Assembly: GCA_000092065.1 (NCBI GenBank)
Contig: CP000584.1
DNA length: 64,000 nucleotides
Reading direction: 5' to 3' (one strand)
Origin: Ostreococcus lucimarinus
Lineage: Eukaryota
Within the stretch, counting starts at the first letter, position 1. Every line of letters begins with the position of its first letter. The notes under the pieces were generated by a model that did not search any database, was not told where the DNA came from, and saw nothing but the letters and a program-made list of their open reading frames with translations. The position numbers were made by a program, and so were the translations under genes. Below, one piece after another: positions 42 through 32,545 of the stretch.

Positions 42-2447
42 GTGCGAACACACGCGACGCCGCGACGCCGCGCCGCGACGCGCGGCGCGCGGCACACGCC
101 GGCGAGCGCGGGCGGGATGCCGGTCCATCGCGACAGCGACCGCGGCGATGCCTCCATCTCGATCGCGTCGCCGTCCGCGAGCGCGCGCGCGCGGAAAGAC
201 GTCGCGCCGCGTCGAAGGACGACGCCGCGGGCGACGCCGACGACGCGACGACCGACGACGACGACGCGCGCGCTGACGATTAAACCGTTCAAGCGCGCGC
301 CGGCGGTGCCGGAGGAGTTCGCGAGCGATGCGCGCGCGATGCTGCGCGACGCGATCGCGGCGGTGCAAGAGAAACGACAGACGAGGGAGAGCCACGAGAC
401 GCTGTACAGGGCGGTGGAGAATTTGTGCGTGCACAAGCGCGGCGACGACGCGTTTGAGGATTTTCGCGCGGGTGGGGACGCGCGGAGCGAAAAGGTGCTC
501 GTAGAGCTGGAAAAGAAGAAGATAGGTGACTCCATGGTGTTTCTGAGGACGTTTGATGAGGTTTGGGGAGAGTACTGCGCGCAGGCGTTGACGCTGCGGT
601 CAATTTTTTTGTATTTGGACCGCGCGCGCGCGAACGGGGGTGGGAAGGCGAGCACGCTTTGGGACGTTTCGTTGCGGTTGTTTCACGAACATTTAGAGAA
701 TTCGGCGAAGAGCGTGAAGGGGAAAGTCGTCCGCGGATTGCTCGATCTCATCGAGCGCGAGAGGATGGGTGAGAAGATTGATAGAGCGCTCGCCAAGCGC
801 GTGTTGCGCGCGCTGAGCGCGTTGGGCGTGTACGGCGAGGCGTTTGACACCGTCTTCATAGAGGCGAGCCAGGAATTTTACCGTAAAGAAGGGAACGAGT
901 ACGGGGCACAGACGGATGTTTCTGACTATTTGAAGCACTGCGAGCGACGATTGGAGGAGGAGGCGGAGCGCTGCACGAATTACTTGGACGCCAGCACGGC
1001 GCGAGGGTTGATGCGCGTGTGTGAGCAAGGTTTAATAGAGGCACACATCGGGGATATCCTCGATAAGGGGTTCGTCGATCTCATGCGTCAGCATCGAATA
1101 GACGACTTGAAGCGATTGCACTCACTCTTGGCGCGCATGGACGGATTAGATCGCCTGAGTGCGGCTTTCGTGACGTACCTCAAGCAGCAAGGCACCGCCA
1201 TCGTCAAGGACGACGCGAACGATAAAGAAATGGTCGAACGCTTGCTGGCGATGAAAAGCGCCGTCGACGAAGTGTTGAATAAATCGTTCGGCCGCTCCGC
1301 CGCGGATGGATCGAACGATATTTTCATCAACGGCGTCAAGGAGTCGTTTGAGTCGTTCATAAACTGTCGTCAAAACGTCCCCGCAGAGCTCATAGCCAAG
1401 TACATCGATTCCAAGCTCAAGAGCGGCAACAAAGGCGCGAGCGAGGAGGAATTGGAGACAACATTAGACAAAGCGTTGACGCTGTTTAGGTACATCGTCG
1501 GTAAAGATGTGTTTGAAGGCTTTTACAAGAAGGAGCTCGCCAAGCGTTTGTTACACGCGAAGAGTGCGAGCATCGACGCAGAGAAGAGCATGATTAGCAA
1601 GTTGAAGGCGGAGTGCGGGAGCCAGTTCACGCAGCATCTCGAGGGTATGTTCAAGGATATCGATCTTAGTCGCGAGATCATGCAATCGTTCCGACAGACG
1701 TTTGACGACGAGGCGTTGACAAAGGGTATAGAGATGAACGTAAACGTCATCACGCAAGGATGCTGGCCATCGTATCCAGTTATCGACGTCAATATTCCCG
1801 AGCAACTCGCTGTTTTACAGGAAAAGTTTCAAGACTTTTACCTCGGAAAGCACTCTGGGCGACAGTTGACGTGGCAAAACTCACAAGGCCACTGCGTGCT
1901 GAAGGCGCGATTCGGTAGCGGCATGAAGGAGCTCAGCGTGTCGCTCTTTCAATGCGTCGTACTCATGTTGTTCAATGACGCCGAAAAACTTTCCTACGAG
2001 GACATAGCGTCGAAGAGTGGGCTAGAGGAGAAAGAATTAAAGCGTGCGCTGCAGTCCCTTGCATGTGCCAAGGTCCGTATCTTGAACAAAGAGCCGAAAT
2101 CTCGCGACGTCAACGCGGGCGACGTCTTCGAGGTCAACGCCGCGCTCAACGAGCGCCTGTTCCGCATCAAGGTCAATTCGATTCAAATCAAAGAAACCAC
2201 GGAGGAAAATAAGCAAACCATGGAGCGCGTGTTCCAAGACCGTCAACAGCAAGTTGACGCCGCGATCGTTCGCGTGATGAAGACCCGAAAGTCGCTCACC
2301 CACGCCTTGCTCATCTCCGAGCTCATGGCGCAGCTGAAATTTCCGACAAAGGCGAGCGATTTAAAGAAGCGCATCGAGAGTCTCATCGAGCGCGAGTACA
2401 TCGAGCGCGACCGCGAGGACGCTCAAAAGTACAACTACCTCGCGTAA
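42..2447 (+). CDS. CUL4: Cullin-4-like cullin (E3 ligase scaffold)
   Basis: 801-aa ORF collinear with CUL4 from the IKPFK segment to the C-terminus. It carries the cullin homology domain, the neddylation-site motif IVRVMKTRKSL and the terminal YNYLA. The N-terminal about 85 aa are low-complexity, so the true start may be 42 or the in-frame ATG at 117. Confidence 0.9.
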   Translation: MRTHATPRRRAATRGARHTPASAGGMPVHRDSDRGDASISIASPSASARARKDVAPRRRTTPRATPTTRRPTTTTRALTIKPFKRAPAVPEEFASDARAMLRDAIAAVQEKRQTRESHETLYRAVENLCVHKRGDDAFEDFRAGGDARSEKVLVELEKKKIGDSMVFLRTFDEVWGEYCAQALTLRSIFLYLDRARANGGGKASTLWDVSLRLFHEHLENSAKSVKGKVVRGLLDLIERERMGEKIDRALAKRVLRALSALGVYGEAFDTVFIEASQEFYRKEGNEYGAQTDVSDYLKHCERRLEEEAERCTNYLDASTARGLMRVCEQGLIEAHIGDILDKGFVDLMRQHRIDDLKRLHSLLARMDGLDRLSAAFVTYLKQQGTAIVKDDANDKEMVERLLAMKSAVDEVLNKSFGRSAADGSNDIFINGVKESFESFINCRQNVPAELIAKYIDSKLKSGNKGASEEELETTLDKALTLFRYIVGKDVFEGFYKKELAKRLLHAKSASIDAEKSMISKLKAECGSQFTQHLEGMFKDIDLSREIMQSFRQTFDDEALTKGIEMNVNVITQGCWPSYPVIDVNIPEQLAVLQEKFQDFYLGKHSGRQLTWQNSQGHCVLKARFGSGMKELSVSLFQCVVLMLFNDAEKLSYEDIASKSGLEEKELKRALQSLACAKVRILNKEPKSRDVNAGDVFEVNAALNERLFRIKVNSIQIKETTEENKQTMERVFQDRQQQVDAAIVRVMKTRKSLTHALLISELMAQLKFPTKASDLKKRIESLIEREYIERDREDAQKYNYLA

Positions 2448-2518
2448 CGATCGACGCTTAGATAATCGTTTAGACTCGCGCGCACCGCGCATTTGTTTCA
2501 ATACAGTTCCCTCTCGCC

Positions 2519-5305
2519 GTGGACGCCTCGACGGCGCGACGAAAAATTCAAAAACAGTCAGCCACAGACAGTCACAGTCACCGCACTCGTCGCCGCTTCG
2601 CGTCACCGATGACGCTCGACGCCCTCGACGTTCTCGATGACGACGCCCTGAACGCGCTCGACGTCGACGGCATCGCGCGCGCGGCGGCAAATAAACGCGC
2701 GCGCGTCGACGTCGGATGCGCGCGCGTCGAGACGAATGAGAACGTGGCACCATCGGCTGACGTGCGCGCGACGCTCAAAGCGCGGTTCGGCCTCGATGCG
2801 TTTCGCCCCGGTCAGCGCGAAGTCGTCGAGGCGGTGCTCGCCGGGCGGGACGCGTGCGTGTTCTGGAGCACGGGCTCGGGGAAGTCGTTGCCGTATCAAC
2901 TCGCGGCGTTTGCGAGCGGAAAGAGCGCGGTGGTGGTGTCTCCGTTGATTTCGTTGATGCAGGATCAGGTGACGGCGTTGAACAACACGGTCGGACGCGG
3001 TGATGGGAAAGATGGTGACGTGGCGGTGTTTTTGGGGTCGGCACAGATGGATCACGGCGCGGAGGCGCGCGTGTTTGAGGGGGCGTATGAAATAGTGTAC
3101 TGCACGCCGGAAAAGTTGACGGCGAGCGATTCGTTTTTGAATGGGTTGAAAAGTCTCGCGGCGCGAGGGCGGTTGGGGTTGATCGCGATCGATGAGGCGC
3201 ATTGTATTTCTGCGTGGGGGCACGATTTTCGTCCGTCGTACACGCAGTTACACATGCTTCGCGACGCGATCCCAAATGTTCCGATCATGGCGCTCACGGC
3301 GACGGCGGTGCGTCACGTGCGCGACGATATTTCAAAGATTCTGCGTCTGCGCGATCCGTACGTGAGCGTGAACTCCGTCGATCGCACCAACTTACACATC
3401 AACGTCGTGCGCCGGACGGATTTTTCAAGAGACTTGGATTACATCGTCGAGCGCGTTCGCGCGGGTGCGCGCGTGTCGCCCGCCATCGTTTATTGTCCGA
3501 CGATTGCGGAAGTCGTCAAAGTCGCCGGTGCGCTGAAACAGCGCTTAGGCGACGATGTCGTTCGGATGTATCACGGCCAAATGTCACCGCCGGAGCGACA
3601 CGATGCGCACATGGATTTTTTGACGAGTAGAAGTCCCGTCATCGTGGCGACGACGGCGTTCGGGATGGGTATTGACAAGCCCGACGTGCGAGCGATTACG
3701 TTATTAGGCGCGTCGAAGACGATGGAAGAGTTTTATCAGCAAATCGGTCGAGCCGGCCGCGATGGACTGGCGTCCGAAGTTTCGATGCTGTTCACGGACG
3801 GCGATTTCACGCGCTACGCTTCAGACTTTTACACGAAAGATCTCACGCCTCAAGCTCGCGACGCTCAAGCAAAATCGACGAATGCGCTCAAAGAGTTTGC
3901 GCTTAATCGCGAAACGTGCAGACGGGTGATGATAATGAAACATTTCGGGGAAACTGCGCCCTTCGTCAGGTGTGGCGGTACTTGCGACAATTGTGCGCGA
4001 AGTGAGCGCGGAGACGAACGAAGAAATTTTGCAAAGGAGGCGCTGCCCGTTCTCTTTGCGCTTCGTTACGCCGGGAGTCAGCCGAGTTCGCGCTTGTTGG
4101 ATACCATCATGGGTACTACGAAGAACGCAGCGAGCTTGCAACCTTGGCAGCGACAAGCGATCGATAACGCCCGCCGACTCGATGATTTACAACCAGGATG
4201 CTCTTCGCGCGAGTTCTACAAGGAAATGCTCAGCTTGTTGTCTCAAGTTGGTTTGGTGCGCGCGAGAACCGTCAAAGGCGCTCACTCAACGTATCCAGTT
4301 TACGATCTCGACCCACAAGCACAGGACTTCTTGCAGCAGCAAAATTCAAACCAATTACCGCCGTTGATGCTCATCTGCCCCGAAAGTGTCCTCGCTGCCG
4401 AGCGCGAGATGGCCAAGAAGGCGGATGAAATCAAAGCTAGATTGGTGGGCAGCGGTGTCGACGTCGCGCGCATTCCAGCGCACGAGCTCGCGTCAGGTCG
4501 CGGCGAGCAAATCGATGCCGAATTGGAGTGGATCAATCGACTGGAGTATTACAGGGGCACACCACGCGCCGAGGCCCTCGTTGATCTATTGTCGCAAATT
4601 GAGCAGTGGCGAGACTCTCGCGCGCGCGAACTCGGTATGGCGCCTGCAGCGGTATTGAGCGCGCACTTGTGCAAAAAGATTGCGTACACCGCGCCGCGTT
4701 CGGTCGAAGCATTGCGCGCTGTTGGTGTTCGCGTCACTGGTGTCGAAAGTCTGAGTAAGTTGATTAACGATGCGATGCCAAAGGTTGATGTCGAAACTAC
4801 GAGCAATGGAGCGCTGGAGCTTTCGCTCGGCACCATCGCGCCCAACGCGCGATGGCATCTCGCCGAGTACAAACCAAAGAAAGGACCGGGCGGGACGATG
4901 GTGAAACCGAATTGGGAGGTGAGTTACGAGCGCTTCACGAGCGGCGAACACGTCGAAACGATCGCGCTCACGACGCAGCCAAAGGCGGTTCAACCGGCGA
5001 CGGTATTCAACCACCTGCTCGAGGCTCTCCTGCACGCCAAACCGCTGGATTACGATCGCGCCGCGTCTTACCTCCCCGCGTCGCAACGCTTAACCAAAAG
5101 CGACTGCGCCATGTTCGCCGACGTTCAACTCAGCAAGCGCGTCGACGTCGTCGCTGAGCGCGCGCCGAGCACGCGAGCGTTTCTCGCCGACGTAATTCGC
5201 GACGTTCCCTCCGCGTCCAAGTTCGACGCCGAGCGTCAGCGCGACGCCGTGTGGTACACCAAGCTCCGCACGTGGATCGCCTTGAGACGCGCAGGCGCCG
5301 TCTGA
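2519..5305 (+). CDS. RecQ-family DNA helicase (helicase core plus RQC-like plus HRDC-like C-terminal region)
   Basis: 928-aa ORF with RecQ motif I (FWSTGSGKSLPYQLAA), the DEAH box (IDEAHCISAWGHDFRPSY) and motif VI (QQIGRAGRDG). A downstream HRDC-like segment is present (LGMAPAAVLSAHLCKKIAYTAPRSVEALRAV). An alternative ATG lies at 2609. The gap to the upstream cullin stop is only 72 bp. Confidence 0.9.
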   Translation: MDASTARRKIQKQSATDSHSHRTRRRFASPMTLDALDVLDDDALNALDVDGIARAAANKRARVDVGCARVETNENVAPSADVRATLKARFGLDAFRPGQREVVEAVLAGRDACVFWSTGSGKSLPYQLAAFASGKSAVVVSPLISLMQDQVTALNNTVGRGDGKDGDVAVFLGSAQMDHGAEARVFEGAYEIVYCTPEKLTASDSFLNGLKSLAARGRLGLIAIDEAHCISAWGHDFRPSYTQLHMLRDAIPNVPIMALTATAVRHVRDDISKILRLRDPYVSVNSVDRTNLHINVVRRTDFSRDLDYIVERVRAGARVSPAIVYCPTIAEVVKVAGALKQRLGDDVVRMYHGQMSPPERHDAHMDFLTSRSPVIVATTAFGMGIDKPDVRAITLLGASKTMEEFYQQIGRAGRDGLASEVSMLFTDGDFTRYASDFYTKDLTPQARDAQAKSTNALKEFALNRETCRRVMIMKHFGETAPFVRCGGTCDNCARSERGDERRNFAKEALPVLFALRYAGSQPSSRLLDTIMGTTKNAASLQPWQRQAIDNARRLDDLQPGCSSREFYKEMLSLLSQVGLVRARTVKGAHSTYPVYDLDPQAQDFLQQQNSNQLPPLMLICPESVLAAEREMAKKADEIKARLVGSGVDVARIPAHELASGRGEQIDAELEWINRLEYYRGTPRAEALVDLLSQIEQWRDSRARELGMAPAAVLSAHLCKKIAYTAPRSVEALRAVGVRVTGVESLSKLINDAMPKVDVETTSNGALELSLGTIAPNARWHLAEYKPKKGPGGTMVKPNWEVSYERFTSGEHVETIALTTQPKAVQPATVFNHLLEALLHAKPLDYDRAASYLPASQRLTKSDCAMFADVQLSKRVDVVAERAPSTRAFLADVIRDVPSASKFDAERQRDAVWYTKLRTWIALRRAGAV

Positions 5306-5385
5306 CCGCGTCGCCCCTGGACATCAGAAGACGCAACCGCGGCGTCGCCAATCGCGAATTGTATCACTGAAGAAATCACGTTTGT

Positions 5386-5416
5386 TTTCCCGCGCATTTT
5401 AAGTTTTCGCGCCAAA
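5386..5416. promoter_or_regulatory. Two E2F-type sites: TTTCCCGC (5386..5393) and the palindromic TTTCGCGCCAAA (5405..5416), 37 to 67 bp upstream of the CDCA7-like ATG
   Basis: Exact matches to the E2F consensus TTTSSCGC. The second site matches on both strands. CDCA7 is a classical E2F target in animals. Confidence 0.5.
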
Positions 5417-5452
5417 ACCGATTCGACACTTCACGCCGCATTGTCCTCCGCC

Positions 5453-6805
5453 ATGCTCTCCGAATTCGAGCTCGCCCGCCTCGAACGCATCGAGCAGAAC
5501 AAGAAACGCATGCTCGAGATGGGCATCACCGGCATGGCGCGCGATCTCGCCGCGCGCGCGTCGCCGCAAAAGGTGCGTTCGGCGACGATGAAGACGCGCG
5601 CTGATTTCGTTGCCGATGGCGAAAGACGACGCGGTGGTGGCGTCGATCGACGCTCGATGGCGTCGCACGCGCGATGAAACGATGACTGACGATATAATGC
5701 GCGGATGATGACGCTCGCGACGACGCAGACGCCGCGAAAGCTGAGCATGAAGTACACGCGTAGACCGATCACGCCGGAGAGCGAACGCCGACGGTCGTCG
5801 CGCGAGCGAACGAAGATTTCGTACGTTGGAATGGATGACGGGGCGCAGGATAAGAGCGATCGTGGGTACACGAAACCGGCTCGGGCGCCGACGCGGGCGC
5901 CGCGGGCGGTGTTTTCGGTCGGGGGACGGGTTTACGATAGCGAACGAGGGGTGACGTGTCACTGGTGTCGACAAAAGACGGTGGAGACGCACGTGGCGTG
6001 CACGGGGGAGGCGTGCCAGGGTGCGCGGTTGCCGTTGTCGTTCTGTGGGATGTGTTTGAGAAATCGTCACGGGGAGGACATCGACGACGCCGTCGCGTCG
6101 GGGTGCTGGCAGTGCCCGCGATGCCGCGGATCCTGCGGCGAAGGGTGCGTGACGTGCTGCAACTGCGGACCGTGCCGGAAAAAGGCTGGTCTGGCGCCGA
6201 CGCACCAAGTCATCCAGCTCGCGCGCGCGAGTGGATTCGATAACGTGCACGATTACTTGGTGTCTCAGACCACGCGCGAAGGCCCGAAAGAAATCGCCGC
6301 GCGCAAGCTTTCGTTCCCATGGGGAAAATGGTTGCGCGACGATTTCTGCGCCCCGTGCGCGGCGGATCCCGAGTCCGAATCAGAGGAGCGACAAGTGGAC
6401 GTCGCCGCCGGTTCCTCCGCAGACGATGAAAGCGCGCAAGACGTCCCGTCACCTTTTGACTCCGACGACGATTCGAGCGGATCTGACGACGATCAGTTCA
6501 TGGTCGTCCGCCGCACTCCGACAAAGCGTCCCGCCGCGTCGCCGCGCGCGTCCGCGTCGCCGAAGAAAAAGGCTCGCCCTTCGATCAAAACGCCGGTCAA
6601 GAAACCGATCGAGTCGATCAAGTCGAAGACCGCGCCACCGACGCCCGAACCCATCGCGCACCTCGGCGAAGACGTCTACGAGTTTGAGCGCGTCTTGGCT
6701 CGCCGCAAGCGCGGTCGCGGCGAGCAGCTTCTCATCAAGTGGCGCGGGTTCGGCGAAGACGAAGCGACGTGGGAACCGGCGAGAAACATCATCACGCACG
6801 CGTGA
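5453..6805 (+). CDS. CDCA7-like zf-4CXXC_R1 protein with C-terminal chromodomain; proposed join(5453..5572,5729..6805)
   Basis: The main exon is the 5705..6805 ORF. It contains the CDCA7-type zinc finger (CHWCRQKT...FCGMCLRNRHGEDIDDAVASGCWQCPRCRGSC) and a chromodomain at the extreme C-terminus (EDVYEFERVLARRKRGRGEQLLIKWRGFGEDEATWEPARNI). A proposed 5' exon at 5453..5572 encodes LARLERIEQNKKRMLEM, which resembles the conserved N-terminal CDCA7 motif (ALNIKQNKAMLAKL). It ends at a GTGCGT donor at 5573, with an ACGCAG acceptor ending at 5728, in frame. The exon-1 assignment is the less certain part. Confidence 0.65.
5573..5728 (+). other. Candidate intron (156 nt) of the CDCA7-like gene
   Basis: The donor is GTGCGT and the acceptor is cgacgcag. 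It contains tgactgac about 30 nt upstream of the acceptor, the same signals as the five better-supported introns in this window. It joins two ORFs in frame. Confidence 0.5.
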
Positions 6806-7001
6806 GCGCGGCGAGCGCGTCACGACGACGAGCGATGCGATACTATTACTATATACTACACGACGACGCGATATTCGATATTTACGAAGTCAGCAACCAC
6901 CTACAGACGCCAACAGCACAATCCAGCGAATCAAATCTTTCTTTCTTCACTCTTCAGCGGTAATCGCCCTCGCGCTCGCGCTCGAACGGCGACGCGCGAC
7001 G

Positions 7002-10000
7002 ATGTCATCGACGACGACGATGACGACGACGCCGCCGGCGGGACGTTCGAGCGCGAGCGCGACGTCGTCCGCGAAGACCAATTCAGCGAAACCACTCGGG
7101 ACGTTCGATTGCGTGTATCGCGACCCCGACGCGCGCGCGCCCGTGCCTGGGAAGCTCAGCGTGTTCGAAACCGCGCTGTCGTTCACGTCGAACATCCTCG
7201 GGATGAATTTCGGAGGAACGAACGTCAAGATGAAGCTGCGGGACGTCAGCGAGGTGGACGGGACGACGCGGTTGGCGTTGAAGATTACGGGGAGGAACGA
7301 TAAGGTGCTGTTGCTGAGTTTTACGAATAGTGCGCCGGCGTTTGATTGCTTAGCGACGAGTTGGAAGCTGGTCCGCGCGGATGCCGACGTGCGAATCGCC
7401 ACCGGTCCGGGATTGCATCGGAAGAAGAAGTCCGGCGGCGCCGAGGCGAAGAATTTGATAGAGTACGGCAAGGACTTGTTTGAGGAGTATAAAGAGACGA
7501 TGGAGATCAAGGCGAGGAGTTTCGTAGAGGAGGCGAGTAAACTTGGGGCTAAACCGCGGCCGACGCCGAAAATGCCGATGGTCGATGTCGAGGATGAGGT
7601 GTCGAGGGCGCTGTTTATTCGCTTGGTCCGGGCGACGAATGTCGTGGCGATGGATTCGGGTGGGACGTCGGACCCGTTCGCGTCGGTGCGCTACCGTGGG
7701 CTCGAGTCGACGTCAAAAACGATCTGGAAAACGCTCGACCCGGAATGGGATGAGGTGTTCACGTTCAGAGTACCCCCCAACAAGACGACGTTGGACGAAA
7801 CAGATTTCGTAGAGATGCACATCTTTGATCGAGACGTCGCGCTCCATGATTTCATAGGTTATGTTAAACTCGATCTCACCGGTACGCGCGTGTACAGCTC
7901 AAAGCGCACGAAGATGACTCTCGAGTTGAAAAATCTTCCCGCCGACCAGCAGCCAGACTTTTTCGACGTCAATCACTTGAAGGAGAAGCTCATGTTTTGG
8001 GAGGGTGAGCGCCAAATCACGGGTACGGTGGAGATTGAATACTGGCTCGGGAATCGTCACGACGCGGACTACAGGATTGCGGGTGTGCCGTTATTGAGAA
8101 AACCTGATCCACGAGCCGGGGAAGCGATGAATCACTTCTGCGATCCGGTATCGGCACTTTTGCGCGTCGAGGTGAAGTGTGGCAGAAACATAATCAACCT
8201 AGACGACGACGACGGAAGCGATCCATACGTTGAAGTGGCTGTAGTTCAGCCAGATGGGACAGAGGAGAAACATCAAACACACTACATCGACGACGCGACC
8301 GATCCCGAATGGAACAGCACCTTCAACTTTATCGCCGCAAAGCCGTACAAGGCAGATTTAGTATTTCGCATGTACGATTACGATGGCGTGACAAGTTATG
8401 ACGATTTGATCGGCATGGTACGCATACCGATCAGTGAACTACAAACGCACAAAGGAATCACAAAGTTTCCAGACTCGCAGTGGTACACCCTGCTCGACGC
8501 TGAGGGCAAAGACTGCGACAAGGAAGGCACAAAGTACGGCGATATTGAAATCAGGGCCTACCTCGACGAAGAATATTTCGAGCACTTGCACGGTGGTAAC
8601 ACAAGTAAGGCCGTAGGTAAGCTTACATTGGACGTTTTGGAGGCAAAAGACTTAGAAGGCGCGCCGGACACGTACGTCATGGTCAAAACCGGGCCATATT
8701 GGTCGAGATTATCCGATCAAAAGGCGCAAAGCAATCCGCAGTGGAACGTGCGTTTGAGATACCCAATCATAGAACCGAGCGAACCGGTGACGGTCGGGGT
8801 GTTCAATTTATCTGATGGCTCTATGATTGGAAAGATAAGATGTGTTCTCTCTGGTTTAGACGATGGTTTGCGCTACGAGGATGATTTTCCGCTCAAGACG
8901 GTGAACAGGAGCGGTGTCGTCGTGACGAATGGCACGCTGCGCTGTTCGTTTACGTTCAAGCACAAATCGACTGCATCTTTCGCGAGTCGTTACATGCAGC
9001 CAGTACTTCCCGATAAGTGGTATATACAGCCGCTTTCGGATACCGAACGACGGCGCATGCTCAGGGCGCATTCCATGATGATGATGAAGCGACTTTACAA
9101 CTCGAATCCATCCATCCCGGAAGTTGTCTCCAAGGAACTCCTCGACTTTTCCAAGCAAGATGTCAGCATCAAGAGTATCAAGAGCTCAATCGCACGGATG
9201 GAGCGCGTCGTAACGAATTTGACATCGATCGGCGATAATCTTTCGTACGCGCTGAGCTGGGAGTCTATCCCGCTCACTATTTTCGTGCAACTGGTCATGG
9301 TGTACGTCATTCATCATCCGCACATGTTCTTTCCCATGTTCTTCTTGAGCATCGCGTTCCAGTCGCTGATGCGGTTTCCATCGCGTTACCAGCGCACGCT
9401 CGACCGCTGCGTACCTGACGATTGGCTCACCGTCGGCTTGGCGTTTCCACCGGATTCCGAAGAAGAGCTCGAGAAGAAGAAAGCGAGCGAAGCCGAGGCA
9501 AAGAAAAAACTTGAAGAGGCGAAGAAACTCGCGTTGGAGGAAGAAAAGCGTAAGGAAGCGGAAAAGAAAGAAGAAGAGAAGGAATCTGAAATTCAGAAGC
9601 CTCGCGAAGTGTTTTCGTTCGAAAGCCTAAATCCGCTCGCGGCGTTGCAGCGCCAAATGGATGAAATCACACAGATGATTACTGACGCCCAAGTCGTTTT
9701 GGATGACGCCGCCGGTATTCTCGAGCGCGTCGTGGGCATACTAGACTGGGACGAGCCTCGCGTGACCGCGTGCGTCGTCGTCGGTCTTTTCCTCATCGCT
9801 TGGGCTTTCATCTTCATCGACGCCGTCATTCGATTCATAACAACCGTCGTCGTCGGCGTCTTCGTCAAAACATTCTTCACCATCTTCTCCCCGGTCGCCA
9901 TCAAATGGGGCGTTTCATTCGCCACCCTCTTCGCTCTACGCCATCCCGCAATCTTACCCGACGCCGCCACCGCCGCGATCGAGGAAGAAAAGCGTCTTCG

Positions 10001-10169
10001 CCGCGCCGCCGCCCAAGCCGCCGCCCAAGCCTCCAGCGCCGGCGCCAAGGTCGAGAGCAAGGACAAGGCCGAAATCTTCGAGCCCAAATCCGCGGTTTTC
10101 GACCCGAGGCCGCTCGCTCCAGTGAACGTCTTCTACCGAATTCCGACCCAGGCCACGCGCGTGTTGTAA
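7002..10169 (+). CDS. Multiple-C2-domain and transmembrane-region protein (MCTP-like, with PRT_C-type C-terminal membrane region)
   Basis: The frame is open from 6231 but overlaps the upstream gene, so the start is taken at the first ATG after that gene's stop (7002). Three C2 domains are recognisable (for example DPFASVRYRG...WKTLDPEWDEVFTF, then DPYVEVAVVQPDG...DPEWNSTFNF, then a third). The C-terminus has two hydrophobic hairpin regions (LTIFVQLVMVYVIHHPHMFFPMFFL and VVVGLFLIAWAFIFIDAVIRFITTVVVGVFV). There is also a K/E-rich coiled stretch. Confidence 0.8.
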   Translation: MSSTTTMTTTPPAGRSSASATSSAKTNSAKPLGTFDCVYRDPDARAPVPGKLSVFETALSFTSNILGMNFGGTNVKMKLRDVSEVDGTTRLALKITGRNDKVLLLSFTNSAPAFDCLATSWKLVRADADVRIATGPGLHRKKKSGGAEAKNLIEYGKDLFEEYKETMEIKARSFVEEASKLGAKPRPTPKMPMVDVEDEVSRALFIRLVRATNVVAMDSGGTSDPFASVRYRGLESTSKTIWKTLDPEWDEVFTFRVPPNKTTLDETDFVEMHIFDRDVALHDFIGYVKLDLTGTRVYSSKRTKMTLELKNLPADQQPDFFDVNHLKEKLMFWEGERQITGTVEIEYWLGNRHDADYRIAGVPLLRKPDPRAGEAMNHFCDPVSALLRVEVKCGRNIINLDDDDGSDPYVEVAVVQPDGTEEKHQTHYIDDATDPEWNSTFNFIAAKPYKADLVFRMYDYDGVTSYDDLIGMVRIPISELQTHKGITKFPDSQWYTLLDAEGKDCDKEGTKYGDIEIRAYLDEEYFEHLHGGNTSKAVGKLTLDVLEAKDLEGAPDTYVMVKTGPYWSRLSDQKAQSNPQWNVRLRYPIIEPSEPVTVGVFNLSDGSMIGKIRCVLSGLDDGLRYEDDFPLKTVNRSGVVVTNGTLRCSFTFKHKSTASFASRYMQPVLPDKWYIQPLSDTERRRMLRAHSMMMMKRLYNSNPSIPEVVSKELLDFSKQDVSIKSIKSSIARMERVVTNLTSIGDNLSYALSWESIPLTIFVQLVMVYVIHHPHMFFPMFFLSIAFQSLMRFPSRYQRTLDRCVPDDWLTVGLAFPPDSEEELEKKKASEAEAKKKLEEAKKLALEEEKRKEAEKKEEEKESEIQKPREVFSFESLNPLAALQRQMDEITQMITDAQVVLDDAAGILERVVGILDWDEPRVTACVVVGLFLIAWAFIFIDAVIRFITTVVVGVFVKTFFTIFSPVAIKWGVSFATLFALRHPAILPDAATAAIEEEKRLRRAAAQAAAQASSAGAKVESKDKAEIFEPKSAVFDPRPLAPVNVFYRIPTQATRVL

Positions 10170-25385: not shown

Positions 25386-28300
25386 ATGACGTCGTCTTCG
25401 AAGGGCTCGCGCGATGGTGGCGTCGCGCGGCGCGTCGCGGTGTTCGCCGCGACGGCGATCGTGGCGTACGCGGTGGCGGGCGTGGCGACGACCAGAGAGG
25501 GACTGGCGCGAGTGGTGCTCTCGACGACGAAGACGAACGATGGACGCGCGCCGATGTGGGCGAAGGAAGGACACGCGCCGCTGAAGGCGTTCTTCAACGA
25601 TGCGATGGCTGACGCGCCGACGGGATTGACGCGCGACGAGCGCCGCGCTGCGCGGGCGCTGCGCGCCGCGCGCAAAGCGGCGCGCGCCGGCAACGGGCAA
25701 TCGGAGACGACGTTCACTCTTTCAAAGTCGTGGAAGTTGCATCGCTTGGCCAAGCTCGGGATCACGGAGGTATTGACGGATGATGACGAAGAGCCGAACG
25801 CGCTCTCCGATGTGTCGTTCACGAGCGCGCAGACCAAGGGCGCGCAGACGGCGTTTGATTTCTCGGAGGAGGAAGCAGAAGCCGCACCACAAAATCAAAC
25901 TGAAGATTTTCTCGCGGACAATTACGACGCTGAAGAAAAGATCGAGACTAGCGTTGATTCGGTGATTACCTCGTCGCCGGATGCGGTGTTTGCGGCACAG
26001 TTTGGGAATCACACATGTGTACAACAGTGCGCCGACGACGCCGACGTCGCGCAAATCATCGGCGGTTCCGGCTGCACTGCGCTTCAAGCGAACGACAACG
26101 TTTTCAAGTGCTTGAACGAAAAGTGTTCATGCGAGGAAGCCGTGGCTTTACACGAAACTTTGCTCTACGTTTGTGACGCGAATGAGGTTGGGAAGAACTT
26201 TTCATTCGTTCGACTCAACCAATTCTACGTCGACACTTTGGATGACGCGATCGACGAGTGCCAGGTCACCGATCTTCTTGACTCAGTCGTTTCTTCTCAG
26301 AACACGTACTGCGACAGTAACGAAGATCAAGACTCGACTATCTCGAATGTCACCGCCGCTGCGCTGGGTCAAGGATGCCACCGCGGCGGCGACCGCCCAA
26401 AGGTGGCCAATTGCATAGTCCACAAGTACTACTTTGCACGCTGCGACTACTGGGCCGGTTGCAGACGCGGATGCAACTCCTGGGATTATCCCATCCGTTG
26501 GAAGCATTGCGGCTGGTGCTGTCATCGATGTGTAAACTTCCCGTGCGGGGTGCATTGCCGTTGTAGATGTCGGCGCTGGCGCTGTCGCTGCAGCTGCCAC
26601 ACGAGATGGTGCCGTCGTTGCTGGCATTTACCAACGTATCGACCGAGGTGCCGCAAGGATAGATATTATCGGCAAAATAAATGCGATATTTGCTCGCCCG
26701 GCTACCGCGTAACACGCAATGGACGATGTCAACTTTACGGATGGATTCAAGCCATAGTCGACGGCATCAACGCCGTGAAGCAAGGGATCAAATACATCAA
26801 AAATGTCATCCCGAACACAATTGACAACATTAAGAACATGTTCACGAACGTCAAGACGCAAGCGAATACGGCGGTTACGAAACTGACAGAGCTCGCCGAT
26901 CAAATCGCGCAGAAAGTGACGGATCTCGCCGATGAAGTGGTTTCCAGTGTCATCTTCATCAAGCCGGCGACTTTCTTGCAAGCAATCGAGAGCGCCCTCC
27001 TTTCGTGTGACAACGCTCAATCCGCGCTCGGCTCCACCAAAATCAGCGCACATGAAGCAACGTCCCTTGGATTGCTCGATCCGGCGAATTCACACGTGCT
27101 TGAGGAAAAGCTTGGTGATATTTTTGGCAAATCCCGTAGCGGAGTTTCTCCCATCCAAGAATGGCGGTCTGATGATACGTCTTCGCTCGGAGTCGGACAG
27201 TGTGTGGCTCATTGCGGCGCTGGGATGTGTCTGCCCACGACAATACCGGCAATGACATACGAAACGCCTGATCACGGTATGCCCTTTCCGGATTCTATCC
27301 ATTTGGTCAAATATAAGCCGGACGCGGTGATCGTCAACGTGGCGGCGAACCCCGTCTCAGTATGCGTCAAGATGACGGAATTCAGCATCCCTACGACCGC
27401 CGCCGAATCAATCGTCAATGCTCTGGTTGATCAAATCAAACCAATCCTACTCGCTGGCGTCGATGAAGTCAAACAGTGGGGGAAGAACGCCGCAAAAGGC
27501 ATGAAAAACGCAGCCGTCGCCGTCGAAGACGGCGCAAACGACATGGCTGGATTTGTCCAAGGGATCCCGGATAAGCTCAACAATCTGGTAGGTCGACGTC
27601 GGTTACTCGCCGATGCCACGCCGTCAGACCAAGATCTCATCGACGTCTCGTTCGCGCTCGGTCGTCTGATGGCTCAGCAAAACAGGCTTCGTGAAAAAAC
27701 CGAAGCAGACGTCAGGCTCTCCTTGGATGAGCTCCGAGCGAGGCTCCAAGCGCTTCCGCACTTTTCGCACGCTCATCCGACGCACAAGGGCGCGGCAAAT
27801 CACGCAACGGCCAATCTTGGTGGTAATTTTCTCAGTGACGCGAGCGACGGACTCGTGAACGCGATGAAGCTCGCCTTCCAAGACATGAAGAACATGAAGA
27901 TGATTGCTCGCTCGACACTGGTCTTGGATTTGAACGTCGAGTTCAACACCGATGCGACTGCCTATCGTTTCGACGATCTCTTGAACAACGGTGAAGGGTA
28001 CACGATGATGATCGATCAAAGCATCCCGATCGGTCTGGGGTTCACCATCGCCATCACCGGTCGGCTTGATGTTAAGATGCCTTACTACTTCATCGCAGAA
28101 AGTGCCGGTAACTTTGCCTACAACGTGGCGTCGAACGATTTCTGGGTCGAGTTCGGCTCCGACGAAGGTAGCGGCGTGCTGAGACTTAACGACAACCCGC
28201 AGGTGACTATCACGCCGTCTGGCACTGGGCAAAGCTCGGTATCGTTTAAGGTATCGACTACTCTTCGTGCGAGTGATTTCAAGGTTTCCGTGTGCTTTGG

Positions 28301-28751
28301 CGACATCATTTGCTCTGGCATCGAGGCGCAGTTCTTCCAAAGTGTCAGCGCTGGCGCGGACAGTCTATCGGCTACGACGGATGAGGAATGTTTCAATGGC
28401 GCGACGGAATTCAAAGCCATGTTCGCCGACACCTTCACCGGGTATTACGACGAAAACAGCGGCGAGTGCCGACTGCGCCAACGCGGCAGCATCAACGCCG
28501 CCGGTCAATACGTCGAAATCCCCAAACCCGATGTTAACGTTGCCTTCACCACCGTCGTGCTCGGTGACAAGGATTGTGTCAGTCCCGTCTCGCTCTACGA
28601 ATACTCCGCCCGCGAGTCTTGGCTCTCGGACGCACAGATGGCTACTTTAACCAGCAAAACGTGCGCGGCGCCGGCTGACGGCGACGGCGACTTTGTCACG
28701 TCGTCGTGTTCGGCATGCGACACCGCCCGCGCGCAGGGCTGCCACTCATAG
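25386..28751 (+). CDS. Large cysteine-rich secreted or signal-anchored protein, paralog A (unknown family)
   Basis: 1121-aa ORF with an N-terminal hydrophobic anchor (VAVFAATAIVAYAVAGVATT) and an acidic linker. A Cys-rich domain follows (CADDADVAQIIGGSGC...KCSCEEAVALHETLLYVCDA), then a helical Asn/Asp/Ile-rich middle and a C-terminal beta-like domain with conserved Cys, and PYYFIAESAGNF and YVEIPKP motifs. It is paralogous to the minus-strand gene at 28890..32150. It contains one anomalous Cys/Arg/Trp segment (see findings). Confidence 0.75.
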   Translation: MTSSSKGSRDGGVARRVAVFAATAIVAYAVAGVATTREGLARVVLSTTKTNDGRAPMWAKEGHAPLKAFFNDAMADAPTGLTRDERRAARALRAARKAARAGNGQSETTFTLSKSWKLHRLAKLGITEVLTDDDEEPNALSDVSFTSAQTKGAQTAFDFSEEEAEAAPQNQTEDFLADNYDAEEKIETSVDSVITSSPDAVFAAQFGNHTCVQQCADDADVAQIIGGSGCTALQANDNVFKCLNEKCSCEEAVALHETLLYVCDANEVGKNFSFVRLNQFYVDTLDDAIDECQVTDLLDSVVSSQNTYCDSNEDQDSTISNVTAAALGQGCHRGGDRPKVANCIVHKYYFARCDYWAGCRRGCNSWDYPIRWKHCGWCCHRCVNFPCGVHCRCRCRRWRCRCSCHTRWCRRCWHLPTYRPRCRKDRYYRQNKCDICSPGYRVTRNGRCQLYGWIQAIVDGINAVKQGIKYIKNVIPNTIDNIKNMFTNVKTQANTAVTKLTELADQIAQKVTDLADEVVSSVIFIKPATFLQAIESALLSCDNAQSALGSTKISAHEATSLGLLDPANSHVLEEKLGDIFGKSRSGVSPIQEWRSDDTSSLGVGQCVAHCGAGMCLPTTIPAMTYETPDHGMPFPDSIHLVKYKPDAVIVNVAANPVSVCVKMTEFSIPTTAAESIVNALVDQIKPILLAGVDEVKQWGKNAAKGMKNAAVAVEDGANDMAGFVQGIPDKLNNLVGRRRLLADATPSDQDLIDVSFALGRLMAQQNRLREKTEADVRLSLDELRARLQALPHFSHAHPTHKGAANHATANLGGNFLSDASDGLVNAMKLAFQDMKNMKMIARSTLVLDLNVEFNTDATAYRFDDLLNNGEGYTMMIDQSIPIGLGFTIAITGRLDVKMPYYFIAESAGNFAYNVASNDFWVEFGSDEGSGVLRLNDNPQVTITPSGTGQSSVSFKVSTTLRASDFKVSVCFGDIICSGIEAQFFQSVSAGADSLSATTDEECFNGATEFKAMFADTFTGYYDENSGECRLRQRGSINAAGQYVEIPKPDVNVAFTTVVLGDKDCVSPVSLYEYSARESWLSDAQMATLTSKTCAAPADGDGDFVTSSCSACDTARAQGCHS

Positions 28752-28889: not shown

Positions 28890-31800
28890 CTAGGCGTAGA
28901 TCGGGCAGTCGGTCGGACACGCGTCGACAGCGGCGCCACAATCCTCCACAGGATCTGTGCTGGCAGCGCACGACGTCGAATGGCTGGATCTATACTGTGC
29001 GCGGCTCGTCATGTCCAAGAGCGACAGAGGCTGGACGCACTCGGTGTCGCCGCGTACTTCGGTGATAATATCGGTAGTCACGAACGGTTTGGGATACTCG
29101 ACGTACAAGCCGGCGCCGACGACGTTGGCACTTGCGCTGCATTGGTTTGAAGTTGTCGGGTAGGACGTGAGGAATTCGCCAAAGACGGGAGACAAACCGG
29201 TGCGTCCGTTGTAACAAGAGGAGTCCGTGGACGCGCCGACCCCGTCGTTTAGAACGGAATCCGCGCCGAATTGAATCCCTTGTTTGATTGTGACTTCGGG
29301 GCCGATGCAGATGATGCCGCCCCAGCAGAGTTTGATGTGGAATTCTTCGAGCGCTGCCACGACGCCGACCTTGAGGCTCGAGGAAATCGTGCCGTCGATC
29401 GTCGGCGTGATGTCCAAGCTTGCCGAAGACTTAGGCGCGACGGTGGCGACGCCGTCGGAGATGCTCACCGTGTAACCAACATTTTTACCCTTGATCTTGT
29501 ACCCGAGCTTTCCGCTGCCTTCTGCGAGCAAGAAATATGGGAGTTGAACTTTCGCGACGCCTCCGACGACCAAAACGAATCCAGTCGGGCCGATGGGTGT
29601 GATCTTGAACAATTCCTGATTGGCTTGGCCGTCAAGGAGATCACCTTCTTGAAAGAGAGCTCCTTTGGCGTCGAATTCCAATGTTTGCTCAAAATCGACG
29701 TCGAAAGAAACGCCAGTGGAGATCGTATTCAAGGCGCCTCGAAGAACTGATATGATACCGTCCTCGATGACGCTGAAGTCGAGCTTGAATCCGCCGAGGT
29801 GGGCGATGTCTCGGCGCGCTCTAGATTTGGGATCCGCCATAGGTTTCATGTTGTGCATGTGCGGATCATTCGAAACCAAGTTATGAATTTCGGCAATAGC
29901 GCTCAACGCCTTCTTCTGCATCAAGTTGACGCGTTGGATGTACTCCTCGACGATGTGTCCAAGCACCAGCGCTCGTTCGTGTTTGGTTAGTTGCTCGAAT
30001 TCTTGCGTGTCACCAGACAAGAGCTTACGTCCAAAGCCCGGGACGTTAATGTTTGCGACGGTCGATTTCACCGACGAAAAGATGTCCGTGAGCGATTCGC
30101 CGATTTCGTTCACGAAGTCGGTGATTCCATCGGCCCAACCCGTGATGGCTTTGACTGCGTCATCGACGATCGGCTCGACAACTTTGACGAACTCAAGTGC
30201 GACGTCGTTCAACACACTCATGTCCAACCCAAAATGCGTTACCCCGGCGCATGCTTTGATGTTGCCATCGACAAATGCCTTGACGTAATCGGGTTGGAAA
30301 CGCTCAAACCGAGGCTCGTCCGGGACAGAGCTCGTTTTGGTGAGTGAGAAAACGCCATCTGAGTAATCTGGGTGCTTTTTTAGGATGTCCTTGACGTCGA
30401 GCTGGTAGCACAGCGCGCCTGCGCAAAGATTGTGACTGCACGAACCTCCGAGTGGAGCGCTTTCAGAAGGTGCGGCGTAGTGCGATGCGATTTCCACACC
30501 GTATACTGCCTCCAACACGCGCTTGCGCACGTCGTGGTGCCGCCTCGACTTCACTGTTTTTCGATCGGCGCCCAAAGACGCGCTGTCGTCGTTGTTGCAT
30601 CCCGCAGCCTGACTGAGTCCGTTCATGAGGGCGTTGGCATTCGGCACAACGGCTGACACTTCGTCATAAACCAAATCGGCGAGTTTTGAGCCGAGATCTG
30701 CGAGGTCACCCGCGAGAGACGCGATCGCGTTCCCGATGCCGTGTATGTCTTCGATGAGATCATTCTTGAAATCGTTTATGGTATCCAAACCATCGTCGAT
30801 CTTGTTCTTCAAAGAGTCCAGCTCTGACGCCCAGTCGTCCCAGAATGCTCCGAGTGCAGCTACGCGAAGCTTAGCTCCGAGCTCAGGGTCCGACGTATCG
30901 ATCGACGCTTTGAACATCTCTTCAGCTTGCTTCAAGTCCTCATCCGTCATGTTGAAGTCTTTCTTCAAAGCTTCAGTATCCTCGACGCACGCCCCGGAGC
31001 TGTCCATCTTGAAATATTGATCGCACGAGTCGCACTCACGCGTCTCGCTGTTCATCAACCAGCCGTACTCGCACTCGATGCACTCACCTTTGCGGGTTCC
31101 TTCGTACGCGCACGGCATGGAGTATGCTTCATGCGTGCTCGTGCAAATCCTACGTGTCCAAGTGCAGCGAGAACACGTATCACCATCGCACGTATCGCAG
31201 GTGTATGCCGGGCAGCTCCATTTCTCTGTCGTGCTGCCGTGTACACGAAGAATACCCGTGCGCGACGAGTTGGCGCCGCACATTGGTGCCTCATATGAGC
31301 AAGTAGAGATGACGTTAGCTTGAGCGACGCAGTGCGCCGGCGCCGGATCATCCGCTGGCAACGAGCAGGGCGCGGCCTTAATATTGCCAGAGTCGTCCGT
31401 GTCTCGGATAGGGGTCAGAATGCTGAGCACACTGTGAGCCTTTCCACAGTGCGCTTCGACCGCCGAGACGGTTTCGTCCAGAAAATTGGCGTATTCGGGG
31501 CCGTTAAACTTTCCGTCCGCCTTCATCGGCGCGTCGCAAATGTAAAACAACGCCTCGATGAGTTGATACGATTCGTGACAACCGCACGCGTCGTGAATGC
31601 ACGAGATGAGCTCGTCATTGTCACTACTCACGGCGTGATCGCACGTCGACTCGACGTCAATGTCGCCGCCGCACGTCGCCGCGCACGGGAACGTCAACTT
31701 TAAATCGGAAAATATCCTACCCGGCGACGTCGCATCGTACGAATTCACCTGATTGTACATAATATCCGTTTCCGTATCGTCGGACGGATCGCCCACGACG

Positions 31801-32150
31801 TTCCCAGAGCCCTCGGTTGAGATTACCAGCGCGTCCGCGTCGACGTTCGCGCTCGCCGTCGTCCCCAAGCTCGGCGCGCTCGGCGTCGACCACGCCGTCG
31901 TCTCCGGCCTCGCCGCTGTCGTCGTCGTTGGAATCCATCGTCCCACGCTCATCTTCCACGTCGTTTCCCCGCCGTCGAGCGCGAGCGCGACGCCCACGGT
32001 CACGCCCAGCACGCACGCGAGCGCGTCCAATCCCCAGCCGCGTCCGCGTCCTCGCGTCCGCGTCTCCCCCAACAACGGCGTGGACGCGTCCGCGCCCGAA
32101 AATCCGAGGCGCGCTCGAGATCCGAGACCCGCGCCCGAATACCGACCCAT
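28890..32150 (-). CDS. Large cysteine-rich secreted or signal-anchored protein, paralog B (unknown family)
   Basis: 1086-aa ORF with the same architecture as paralog A. It has an N-terminal anchor (LDALACVLGVTVGVALAL), a Cys-rich domain (CGGDIDVESTC...CGCHESYQLIEALFYICDA), a helical middle and a C-terminal domain (LPYFLLAEGSGKLGY, YVEYPKP, multiple conserved Cys). It is convergent with A, and their stops are 139 bp apart. Confidence 0.75.
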   Translation of the reverse strand: MGRYSGAGLGSRARLGFSGADASTPLLGETRTRGRGRGWGLDALACVLGVTVGVALALDGGETTWKMSVGRWIPTTTTAARPETTAWSTPSAPSLGTTASANVDADALVISTEGSGNVVGDPSDDTETDIMYNQVNSYDATSPGRIFSDLKLTFPCAATCGGDIDVESTCDHAVSSDNDELISCIHDACGCHESYQLIEALFYICDAPMKADGKFNGPEYANFLDETVSAVEAHCGKAHSVLSILTPIRDTDDSGNIKAAPCSLPADDPAPAHCVAQANVISTCSYEAPMCGANSSRTGILRVHGSTTEKWSCPAYTCDTCDGDTCSRCTWTRRICTSTHEAYSMPCAYEGTRKGECIECEYGWLMNSETRECDSCDQYFKMDSSGACVEDTEALKKDFNMTDEDLKQAEEMFKASIDTSDPELGAKLRVAALGAFWDDWASELDSLKNKIDDGLDTINDFKNDLIEDIHGIGNAIASLAGDLADLGSKLADLVYDEVSAVVPNANALMNGLSQAAGCNNDDSASLGADRKTVKSRRHHDVRKRVLEAVYGVEIASHYAAPSESAPLGGSCSHNLCAGALCYQLDVKDILKKHPDYSDGVFSLTKTSSVPDEPRFERFQPDYVKAFVDGNIKACAGVTHFGLDMSVLNDVALEFVKVVEPIVDDAVKAITGWADGITDFVNEIGESLTDIFSSVKSTVANINVPGFGRKLLSGDTQEFEQLTKHERALVLGHIVEEYIQRVNLMQKKALSAIAEIHNLVSNDPHMHNMKPMADPKSRARRDIAHLGGFKLDFSVIEDGIISVLRGALNTISTGVSFDVDFEQTLEFDAKGALFQEGDLLDGQANQELFKITPIGPTGFVLVVGGVAKVQLPYFLLAEGSGKLGYKIKGKNVGYTVSISDGVATVAPKSSASLDITPTIDGTISSSLKVGVVAALEEFHIKLCWGGIICIGPEVTIKQGIQFGADSVLNDGVGASTDSSCYNGRTGLSPVFGEFLTSYPTTSNQCSASANVVGAGLYVEYPKPFVTTDIITEVRGDTECVQPLSLLDMTSRAQYRSSHSTSCAASTDPVEDCGAAVDACPTDCPIYA

Positions 32151-32166
32151 CTCTCACGTCCTCGCG

Positions 32167-32392
32167 TTCCCGCGCGCTTTCGTCCTCGCTCGCGTCGTTC
32201 GCACGCGTCGAAAGTTCGCACGCGTCGTTCGCGGAACGTTCTCACGCCGCGCGCGGATCGCGTCGCCGGTTTCGCGCGTCGCCGGTCGCGCGCGTCTTTC
32301 ACCGTCGCGTCGTCGCGTCGAACGAGGTCGATCGCGCGCGCGAGTGGCGACGCGCGCGCGCGTCGCGGCAATCGAGCGTAACACCAAACGCG
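32167..32392. repeat. Right arm of the inverted repeat (pairs with 25107..25378)
   Basis: It is the reverse complement of the left arm. This is confirmed because the + ORF at 31817 and the minus ORF at 24993 encode the same peptide string (LASFARVESSHASFAERSHAARGSRRRFRASPV) across the two arms. The arm abuts the ATG of paralog B (32150). Confidence 0.85.
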
Positions 32393-32545
32393 CGGTCGGT
32401 CGCCGAAATCGTAAAGCACGTCGCACTGCGTGCGCATACCGACGGATCACGACTCAACGGTCCGGGGACTCGACGCCGACGCGAAAACGACCGTTGGCGT
32501 CGCGGCGACGCGCGCGGCGACGCGACACACGACGACGCGCGCGCG

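Follow-up and report, generated by a model that had tools for sequence, protein, structure and literature searches.

A two-exon gene of an Ostreococcus-like picoalga encodes a class II zf-4CXXC_R1 zinc finger fused to a chromodomain without its C-terminal helix

CDCA7 and HELLS form a remodelling module whose loss causes ICF syndrome (an immunodeficiency with unstable centromeres and anomalies of the face), and a natural fusion of a CDCA7-type zinc finger to a chromodomain bears on how this module is targeted to heterochromatin. Positions 5453..6805 of a 64,000-nucleotide stretch of Ostreococcus lucimarinus contig CP000584.1 (assembly GCA_000092065.1; the whole stretch is referred to as the window) were initially annotated as encoding such a fusion. 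The locus raises the question of whether a single gene encodes both domains, to which types the finger and the chromodomain belong and what a protein of this composition might do. We find that 5453..6805 is one real nuclear gene with two exons, from an Ostreococcus-like picoalga (Mamiellales). The architecture of its product is known but varied in two respects: the finger is of class II and carries a Cys-rich insertion, and the chromodomain lacks the C-terminal helix.

The gene model joins a short upstream exon to the main coding region. The region is gene-dense eukaryotic sequence with a G+C content of about 60% and its + strand carries an open reading frame (ORF) at 5705-6805 with a small ORF at 5441-5677 upstream. 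Joining 5453-5572 to 5729-6805 keeps the reading frame and yields a product of 398 amino acids (aa) that is found verbatim in a public protein collection (P0121). This protein originates from L001, a 3.9-kb contig of run SRR28369019 that aligns to window positions 2918-5572 and 5727-6911 with 99.8% identity. The exon-exon junction of L001 is exact (CAAAAG/ACGCCG), with 5573-5728 precisely gone. Because this GT..AG deletion is precise, L001 probably derives from RNA, a spliced transcript being the simplest reading. Conserved counterparts of the exon 1 peptide occur in O. tauri P0149, P0002, exon 1 of the metagenome contig L004 and Micromonas-like and Bathycoccus homologs. The 408 aa O. tauri ortholog (CEF97425.1/XP_022838683.1, P0149) is annotated with an identical exon structure including the N-terminal exon, and the L004 ortholog shares the GTGCGT donor and the intron position, with a diverged intron and an acceptor that is in frame. 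Among Bathycoccus and Micromonas-like homologs, both contiguous forms (P0012, P0074) and ORFs reading through the intron (P0016, P0017, P0013) occur, so that for Bathycoccus the spliced form P0012 can be compared with the read-through forms P0016 and P0017. The upstream micro-exon and the intron proposed from the letters of the window are thus borne out by the exact in-frame join, the verbatim occurrence of P0121 and the missing intron in L001.

It is highly improbable that this gene model is wrong, with the ORFs at 5441-5677 and 5705-6805 being separate genes or the chromodomain helix lying on an overlooked 3' exon (donor 6802, acceptor near 6957). The downstream ORF does begin with an ATG of its own (5705) and is listed by prokaryote-style gene callers as a stand-alone protein of 366 aa (P0001), and a GTGAGC is present at 6802. 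However, the two exons are precisely joined in L001, which shows no splicing between 6802 and 6911, the intron occurs both in the annotated O. tauri gene and in the ortholog on L004, and P0074 and P0012 run contiguously over the junction. All orthologs share an identical stopping point and the hypothetical 3' splice gives NIITHAGNRPRARARTATRDDVIDDDDDDD..., which is out of frame across the next gene. The candidate of two separate genes is ruled out by the P0121 product, the L001 junction, the annotated O. tauri gene and the intron in L004.

The initial annotation had observed that the chromodomain ends directly after its WEP motif and had suspected a missed 3' exon on that ground. The first point is correct, since the Pfam match covers only profile positions 1-40 of 53, while the second does not hold. 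L001 is collinear with the window past the stop codon, and the chromodomain-bearing orthologs, compared across at least nine diverged Ostreococcus-like clusters and one Micromonas-like protein (P0177), all end 1-12 residues after WEPxxN[IL][IL]. Splicing from 6802 to 6958 would add GNRPRARARTATRDDVIDDDDDDD..., a low-complexity sequence that overlaps the beginning of the following gene (ATG 7002) in a different frame. The unspliced sequence past the stop in L001 and the end point shared by the orthologs therefore indicate that the chromodomain is natively helix-less.

Both domains of the fusion are found by Pfam far beyond chance, in agreement with the initial annotation. The zf-4CXXC_R1 domain (PF10497) matches at E=6.3e-31 with 106.9 bits against a cut-off of 22.7, spanning aa 109-217 and the whole profile (1-99), and the Chromo domain (PF00385) matches at E=1e-10 with 41.8 bits against a gathering score of 25.1, spanning aa 357-395. 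Sequence searches of the PDB return CDCA7 (8tlk) at 2.1e-23 and the CDYL2 chromodomain at 5.3e-07 with the whole protein or 1.4e-08 with the C-terminus alone. Altogether 50 PDB chromodomains match with E <=1e-3, including those of CDYL2, CDYL, CBX proteins, MPP8 and LHP1. The features of the gene and its product are collected in Table 1.

Table 1. Features of the gene and its product. Coordinates are window positions; residue numbers prefixed with h refer to human CDCA7. AF2, AlphaFold2; pLDDT, predicted local distance difference test; 5mC, 5-methylcytosine.
Feature	Position	Strand	Description	Basis
Gene	5453..6805	+	two exons, 398 aa encoded	
Exon 1	5453..5572	+	40 codons, ATG at 5453: MLSEFELARLERIEQNKKRMLEMGITGMARDLAARASPQK	in frame with exon 2
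Intron	5573..5728	+	156 nt, GTGCGT...CAG, in-frame stop inside	missing from contig L001
Exon 2	5729..6805	+	includes TGA stop 6803-6805	ORF and translation; L001 collinear past stop to 6911
N-terminal amphipathic helix	5462..5557	+	aa 4-35; candidate HELLS-binding helix (HLBH-like)	AF2 helices 4-22, 25-35
zf-4CXXC_R1/HMZF-like domain with C-terminal helices	5933..6343	+	aa 109-245, class II	Pfam, PDB, AF2, Foldseek
Cys-rich insertion	6131..6154	+	SCGEGCVT, 8 residues, aa 175-182	gap in HMMER alignment to 8tlk
Low-complexity linker	6344..6667	+	aa 246-353; acidic/Ser-rich, then Lys/Pro/Ser-rich basic	AF2 pLDDT 41-50
Chromodomain without C-terminal helix	6668..6793	+	aa 354-395, cage Y357/W378/F381	Pfam, AF2, Foldseek
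hR274 = R121			5mC contact	HMMER alignment
hQ275 = Q122			selectivity against full methylation	HMMER alignment
hR304 = R153			phosphate (backbone) contact	HMMER alignment
hG294 (ICF glycine) = L143			loop 2 residues longer	HMMER alignment
hS330 = G187			phosphate contact	HMMER alignment

The zinc finger closely resembles that of CDCA7 in sequence and predicted fold. A sequence search with residue alignment matches the CDCA7 structures 8tlk, 8tle and 8yv8 at 1e-22 to 2e-23. The AlphaFold2 (AF2) model of aa 101-245 reaches a pLDDT >90 and superposes in Foldseek on nucleosome-bound CDCA7 (8yv8_K) with a template modelling (TM) score of 0.83 and a root-mean-square deviation (rmsd) of 2.5 Å. The human residues R274, Q275, R304 and S330 have assigned roles in CDCA7 (PMC11343034), and the equivalents of the first three are retained. 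Across 96 homologs R153 is invariant and R121 and Q122, which follow the key finger cysteines C117 and C120, are nearly so (>=90%). The same 96 homologs also conserve the insertion, which adds three cysteines to the finger (C176 and C180 invariant, C183 nearly so at >=90%) and includes the invariant glycines G177 and G179.

The finger is nevertheless not that of a class I CDCA7. While R121 and R153 are kept, the ICF glycine is replaced by L143 in both the HMMER alignment and a MUSCLE alignment of close homologs. The eleven-cysteine spacing CXXCX10CX4CX7CXXCX19CXXCX3CXCXXC is altered as well, with X9 in place of X7 and a last cluster that reads CX3CX2CCXCX2C because of the 8 aa insertion SCGEGCVT; class I sequences read CRDLCNCSFC in this region and, like human CDCA7, have no insertion. 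Because the ICF glycine is replaced, the finger belongs to class II as defined by Funabiki et al. (2023, PMC10538959). Published class II finger sequences (RVYDSEKGTTCHWCRQKTVETHVEC...PVQFCGMCLRNRHGEDIDLA) agree nearly residue for residue with P0012, P0016 and the window protein. Green-lineage class II members already listed include Bathycoccus XP_007512509, Micromonas XP_003056019, O. lucimarinus XP_001417133 and Chlamydomonas eustigma GAX81623, and a separate class I CDCA7 is listed for these algae, XP_001421158 in O. lucimarinus (PMC10538959). Class I fingers (CHQCRQKT...RGQFCGDC...CNCSFCR) are recovered from related metagenomes too. With the published Micromonas class I finger as query, 30 short exon-sized fragments without N-termini are found, confirming the class I paralogs.

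By sequence, then, the finger is a class II paralog of CDCA7 and not an ortholog. Its designation as CDCA7-type in the initial annotation stands for the zf-4CXXC_R1 domain and the CDCA7-like fold, and fails for CDCA7 orthology in view of L143, G187 and the Cys-rich insertion. Methyl-DNA reading, also part of that annotation, is upheld as far as the contact residues R121, Q122 and R153 are kept, and since the finger is class II, binding becomes a prediction rather than an established property. All green-lineage class II fingers carry the 8 aa insertion and read NRHGE (H154) where class I fingers read NRYGE. The extra cysteines and H154 could form an additional zinc site.

The chromodomain is truncated and under constraint. 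Canonical chromodomains consist of a three-stranded antiparallel sheet packed against a C-terminal α-helix. Here, the three-strand sheet is predicted and the helix is absent, as the protein ends three residues after NII and lacks profile positions 41-53. An AF2 model of 55 aa built with a chromodomain-specific alignment reaches a pLDDT of 87.8 with strands at positions 16-25, 28-35 and 44-47. In Foldseek, this model superposes on ligand-bound CBX7, CDYL2, CBX8, MPP8 and LHP1 with TM scores of about 0.7 and rmsd values of 0.8-2 Å. In alignments with CDYL2, HP1 and other chromodomains, Y357, W378 and F381 fall on the columns of the aromatic cage, W378 being invariant in our alignment A3. The intact cage and the likeness to the ligand-bound domains of CBX proteins, CDYL2, MPP8 and LHP1 suggest that the domain may bind methyl-lysine. 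Identity to orthologs is 67-98% in the chromodomain, near that of the zinc finger (79-89%) and well above that of the low-complexity linker (42-54%) and the N-terminal linker (42-60%).

We regard it as very unlikely that the chromodomain is a decaying, ligand-less relic of a truncated fusion. Such a relic would fit the missing profile positions, which correspond to the C-terminal helix, and the low confidence of the full-length AF2 run, in which the chromodomain is left unfolded and wrongly helical with a pLDDT of about 45. This poor result arises because only about 14 of the 96 alignment rows cover the chromodomain. Decay is contradicted by the single end point kept in at least nine diverged Ostreococcus-like lineages and Micromonas-like P0177, by an identity exceeding that of the adjoining linker, by the intact cage and by the confident model that superposes on ligand-bound chromodomains. 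A conserved chromodomain without helix is a small structural curiosity and may define the minimal functional form of this domain.

The N-terminal helix is the third conserved element of the protein. AF2 predicts helices at aa 4-22 and 25-35 with a pLDDT >90, and the motif [FY]E..R..RI..N..[KR]M..[LM]G[ILV] recurs N-terminally in green algae and Amoebozoa, in 45 distinct zf-4CXXC_R1 proteins altogether, supporting the conserved N-terminal motif that had been proposed for exon 1. CDCA7 binds HELLS via an N-terminal helix conserved in plants and animals (PMC11343034). A profile hidden Markov model (HMM) of the algal and amoebozoan motif picks RALNIKQNKAMLAKL (118-132) in a provisional human CDCA7 sequence, with a score of only 5.5 bits that one in 2000 shuffled sequences equals. 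In this sequence, RALNIKQNKAMLAKL occupies what we take to be the leucine zipper/HLBH. The weak likeness between the algal and human helices represents a lead, not proof.

What might a protein of this composition do? The reading we favor, and hold to be fairly probable, is that it binds both methyl-CpG and methyl-lysine as a bivalent reader and recruits a remodeller of the HELLS/DDM1 type. From the gene model, domains, key residues, folds and conservation reported above we infer its DNA and histone ligands, its remodeller partner and its link to DNMT5. The protein would represent a CDCA7-like chromatin adaptor made up of the N-terminal helix, the class II finger, a disordered acidic/basic linker and the C-terminal chromodomain. 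The finger would dock on methylated or hemimethylated CpG DNA through the kept CDCA7 major-groove residues, while the chromodomain would dock on a methylated histone lysine such as H3K9me or H3K27me, carried by the same nucleosome or by one next to it. The N-terminal helix would bring in the HELLS/DDM1-type remodeller, whose recruitment could allow CG methylation to be maintained in a lineage with DNMT5 and without DNMT1 and UHRF1. Mamiellophyceae possess CDCA7, HELLS and DNMT5 and lack DNMT1, and in O. lucimarinus UHRF1 was not detected while EZH and EED are present (PMC10538959).

Several observations weigh against this reading. In addition to the poor full-length model, the chromodomain lacks the helix that completes the hydrophobic core, making its stability and ligand binding uncertain, and the algal helix motif scores low in human CDCA7. 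The finger is class II, with L143 in a longer loop, G187 in place of the phosphate-contacting S330 and the Cys-rich insertion, and neither PMC10538959 nor PMC11343034 reports hemimethylated-DNA binding by any class II domain. Other class II proteins, the plant DDR1-3, act with ISWI (PMC10538959), and the class I CDCA7 of the same lineage may be the true HELLS partner. These points lead to an alternative that we consider possible though rather unlikely, in which the class II protein is unrelated to the maintenance of DNA methylation and instead serves more generally as a reader or adaptor of the heterochromatin or Polycomb type, with a partner other than HELLS. Its finger would bind unmethylated or structure-specific DNA, or merely anchor the nucleosome. 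The class II features themselves, including the changes at the G294 and S330 positions, fit this alternative, as do the retention of a separate class I CDCA7 and the fact that known relatives of classes II and III work with ISWI or are linked to demethylases and do not serve 5mC maintenance (PMC10538959). On the other hand, the equivalents of R274, Q275 and R304 are invariant or nearly so across the homologs, the fold superposes on nucleosome-bound CDCA7 and the N-terminal helix is common to amoebozoan CDCA7-like proteins with CHQCRQKT...CNCSFCR fingers.

A more specific role can also be envisaged. Mamiellophyceae, which have lost DNMT1, keep dense CG methylation through DNMT5, and it is conceivable, though we think it unlikely, that the protein functionally replaces UHRF1 in these algae, as one adaptor whose modified HMZF senses hemimethylated CpG, whose minimal helix-less chromodomain senses a histone methyl-lysine and which links both signals to a SNF2 remodeller (HELLS) or to DNMT5. 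Sister lineages would then have swapped the histone reader, to a PHD finger in Micromonas and to none in Bathycoccus. A UHRF1-like coupler for DNMT5-based methylation would raise the significance of the protein. Databases already contain the architecture, as does part of the literature, and current models are unchanged. O. tauri offers a genetically tractable and very compact system without DNMT1 and UHRF1 for asking whether the adaptor supports DNMT5-based maintenance.

To place the fusion among its relatives, we carried out a HMMER scan of 1.84 billion representatives, which returned 1701 hits. In a domain scan of the query and the 117 best new representatives, zf-4CXXC_R1 is found 116 times, Chromo 11 times, WHIM1 five times, PHD four times, PTM/DIR17-type Tudor twice and Tudor-knot once. 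Ten of the 117 best representatives share both domains with the query. Of the other Chromo-bearing representatives, those with a traceable organism belong to Amoebozoa (Balamuthia KAL6077673.1, Clastostelium and Protostelium) and the remainder lie on environmental contigs; in all of them the chromodomain is complete, including the C-terminal helix, and the finger is of the CDCA7-like CNCSFCR kind. The combination of zf-4CXXC_R1 and CHROMO has been noted for the amoeba Acanthamoeba (XP_004340890) and the fungus Taphrina (CCG81269) (PMC10538959). The main text of that study makes no mention of the Ostreococcus chromodomain and those matches to 'chromo' in its supplementary text that were inspected record no chromodomain next to the entries for O. 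lucimarinus (PMC10538959). Given the annotated O. tauri protein CEF97425.1 and these precedents in Acanthamoeba, Taphrina, Balamuthia, Clastostelium and Protostelium, the architecture is less unusual than the initial annotation had made it.

The reader module varies within the Mamiellales, with a chromodomain in Ostreococcus and P0177, a PHD finger in Micromonas pusilla (P0045, P0063) and none in Bathycoccus and P0013. More broadly, a PHD finger, PTM/DIR17-type Tudor or Tudor-knot replaces the chromodomain in Micromonas-like P0045, P0063, P0089 and P0115 and in representatives of our alignment A2, with WHIM1 in five. Fusions of the zf-4CXXC_R1 finger to chromatin readers have apparently arisen several times. 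Natural fusions of this finger with a methyl-lysine reader, seen in green picoalgae and Amoebozoa and with PHD or Tudor modules instead in other relatives, suggest repeated selection for coupling the sensing of DNA methylation to histone marks. A short conserved motif, [DE]D[IVM][RK]D[YMAF]F, is located near the C-terminus of homologs without a chromodomain, namely P0013/P0014 (REDMRDYFPRASKRARVVA), P0045 (QLDIRDAFSS) and P0079 (QDIKDF). In P0177 the same motif (SRDIRDMFRAAAKK) precedes the chromodomain.

The neighborhood of the gene is conserved beyond the window. The order Cullin, RecQ helicase, CDCA7-like gene and C2/PRT_C membrane protein (window 42-10169) is found again in L004 and L005, which represent a diverged Ostreococcus-like metagenome lineage. 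A WD40 gene follows the C2/PRT_C gene in L005 as in the window, and the Micromonas-like ortholog locus L002 has MCM2 downstream instead. The RecQ ORF (2519-5305) is listed from a GTG at 2519, and the gene call on L001 starts at about window position 2957. Nucleotides 1-80 of L001 have no match to the window and are more A+T-rich, probably representing a chimeric assembly end. No tRNA genes were found in the window. Three long ORFs at 25386-28751 (+), 28890-32150 (-) and 31817-36400 (+), of 1121, 1086 and 1527 aa, respectively, have no Pfam match at E <=1e-5.

Compared with known systems, the window protein is closest to its green class II relatives. These share the finger subtype CHWCRQKT...FCGMCLRNRHGED...CRGSCGEGCVTCCNCGPCRK, the substituted ICF glycine and the N-terminal helix. 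The O. tauri ortholog resembles it in exon structure and in the helix-less C-terminal chromodomain, with an identity between 69% (BLASTP) and 74% (phmmer), which places the window protein in a species other than O. tauri. In contrast, the class II members of Bathycoccus, most Micromonas-like algae and core chlorophytes are without a chromodomain, and in some Micromonas forms a PHD finger takes its place. With CDCA7 and CDCA7L (8tlk, 8tle, 8yv8), class I HMZF proteins that sense hemimethylated CpG and activate HELLS, the window protein has in common the fold (TM 0.83), the first eight cysteines, the R274/Q275/R304 positions, the helices C-terminal to the finger and, with weak sequence likeness, an N-terminal helix with the motif E..R..[RN]I..NK..[ML]. 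It differs from them by leucine for G294, glycine for S330, two additional residues in the loop before the fifth cysteine, the 8 aa insertion with three extra conserved cysteines, the added chromodomain and the presence of a class I paralog in the same lineage. The fusions of Amoebozoa and Taphrina combine the YE..R..RI..N helix at the N-terminus with zf-4CXXC_R1 and one chromodomain with an intact cage, as the window protein does, but their CHQCRQKT...CNCSFCR fingers have no insertion and their chromodomain is complete and may be N- or C-terminal. Their fusion and that of the window protein probably have independent origins. UHRF1, composed of SRA, tandem Tudor/PHD and RING modules, shows no homology to the window protein, which is without SRA, Tudor, UBL and RING domains and without ubiquitin-ligase activity. 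As a functional analogy only, the two would follow the same logic, a hemimethylated-CpG reader and a histone methyl-lysine reader combined in one polypeptide.

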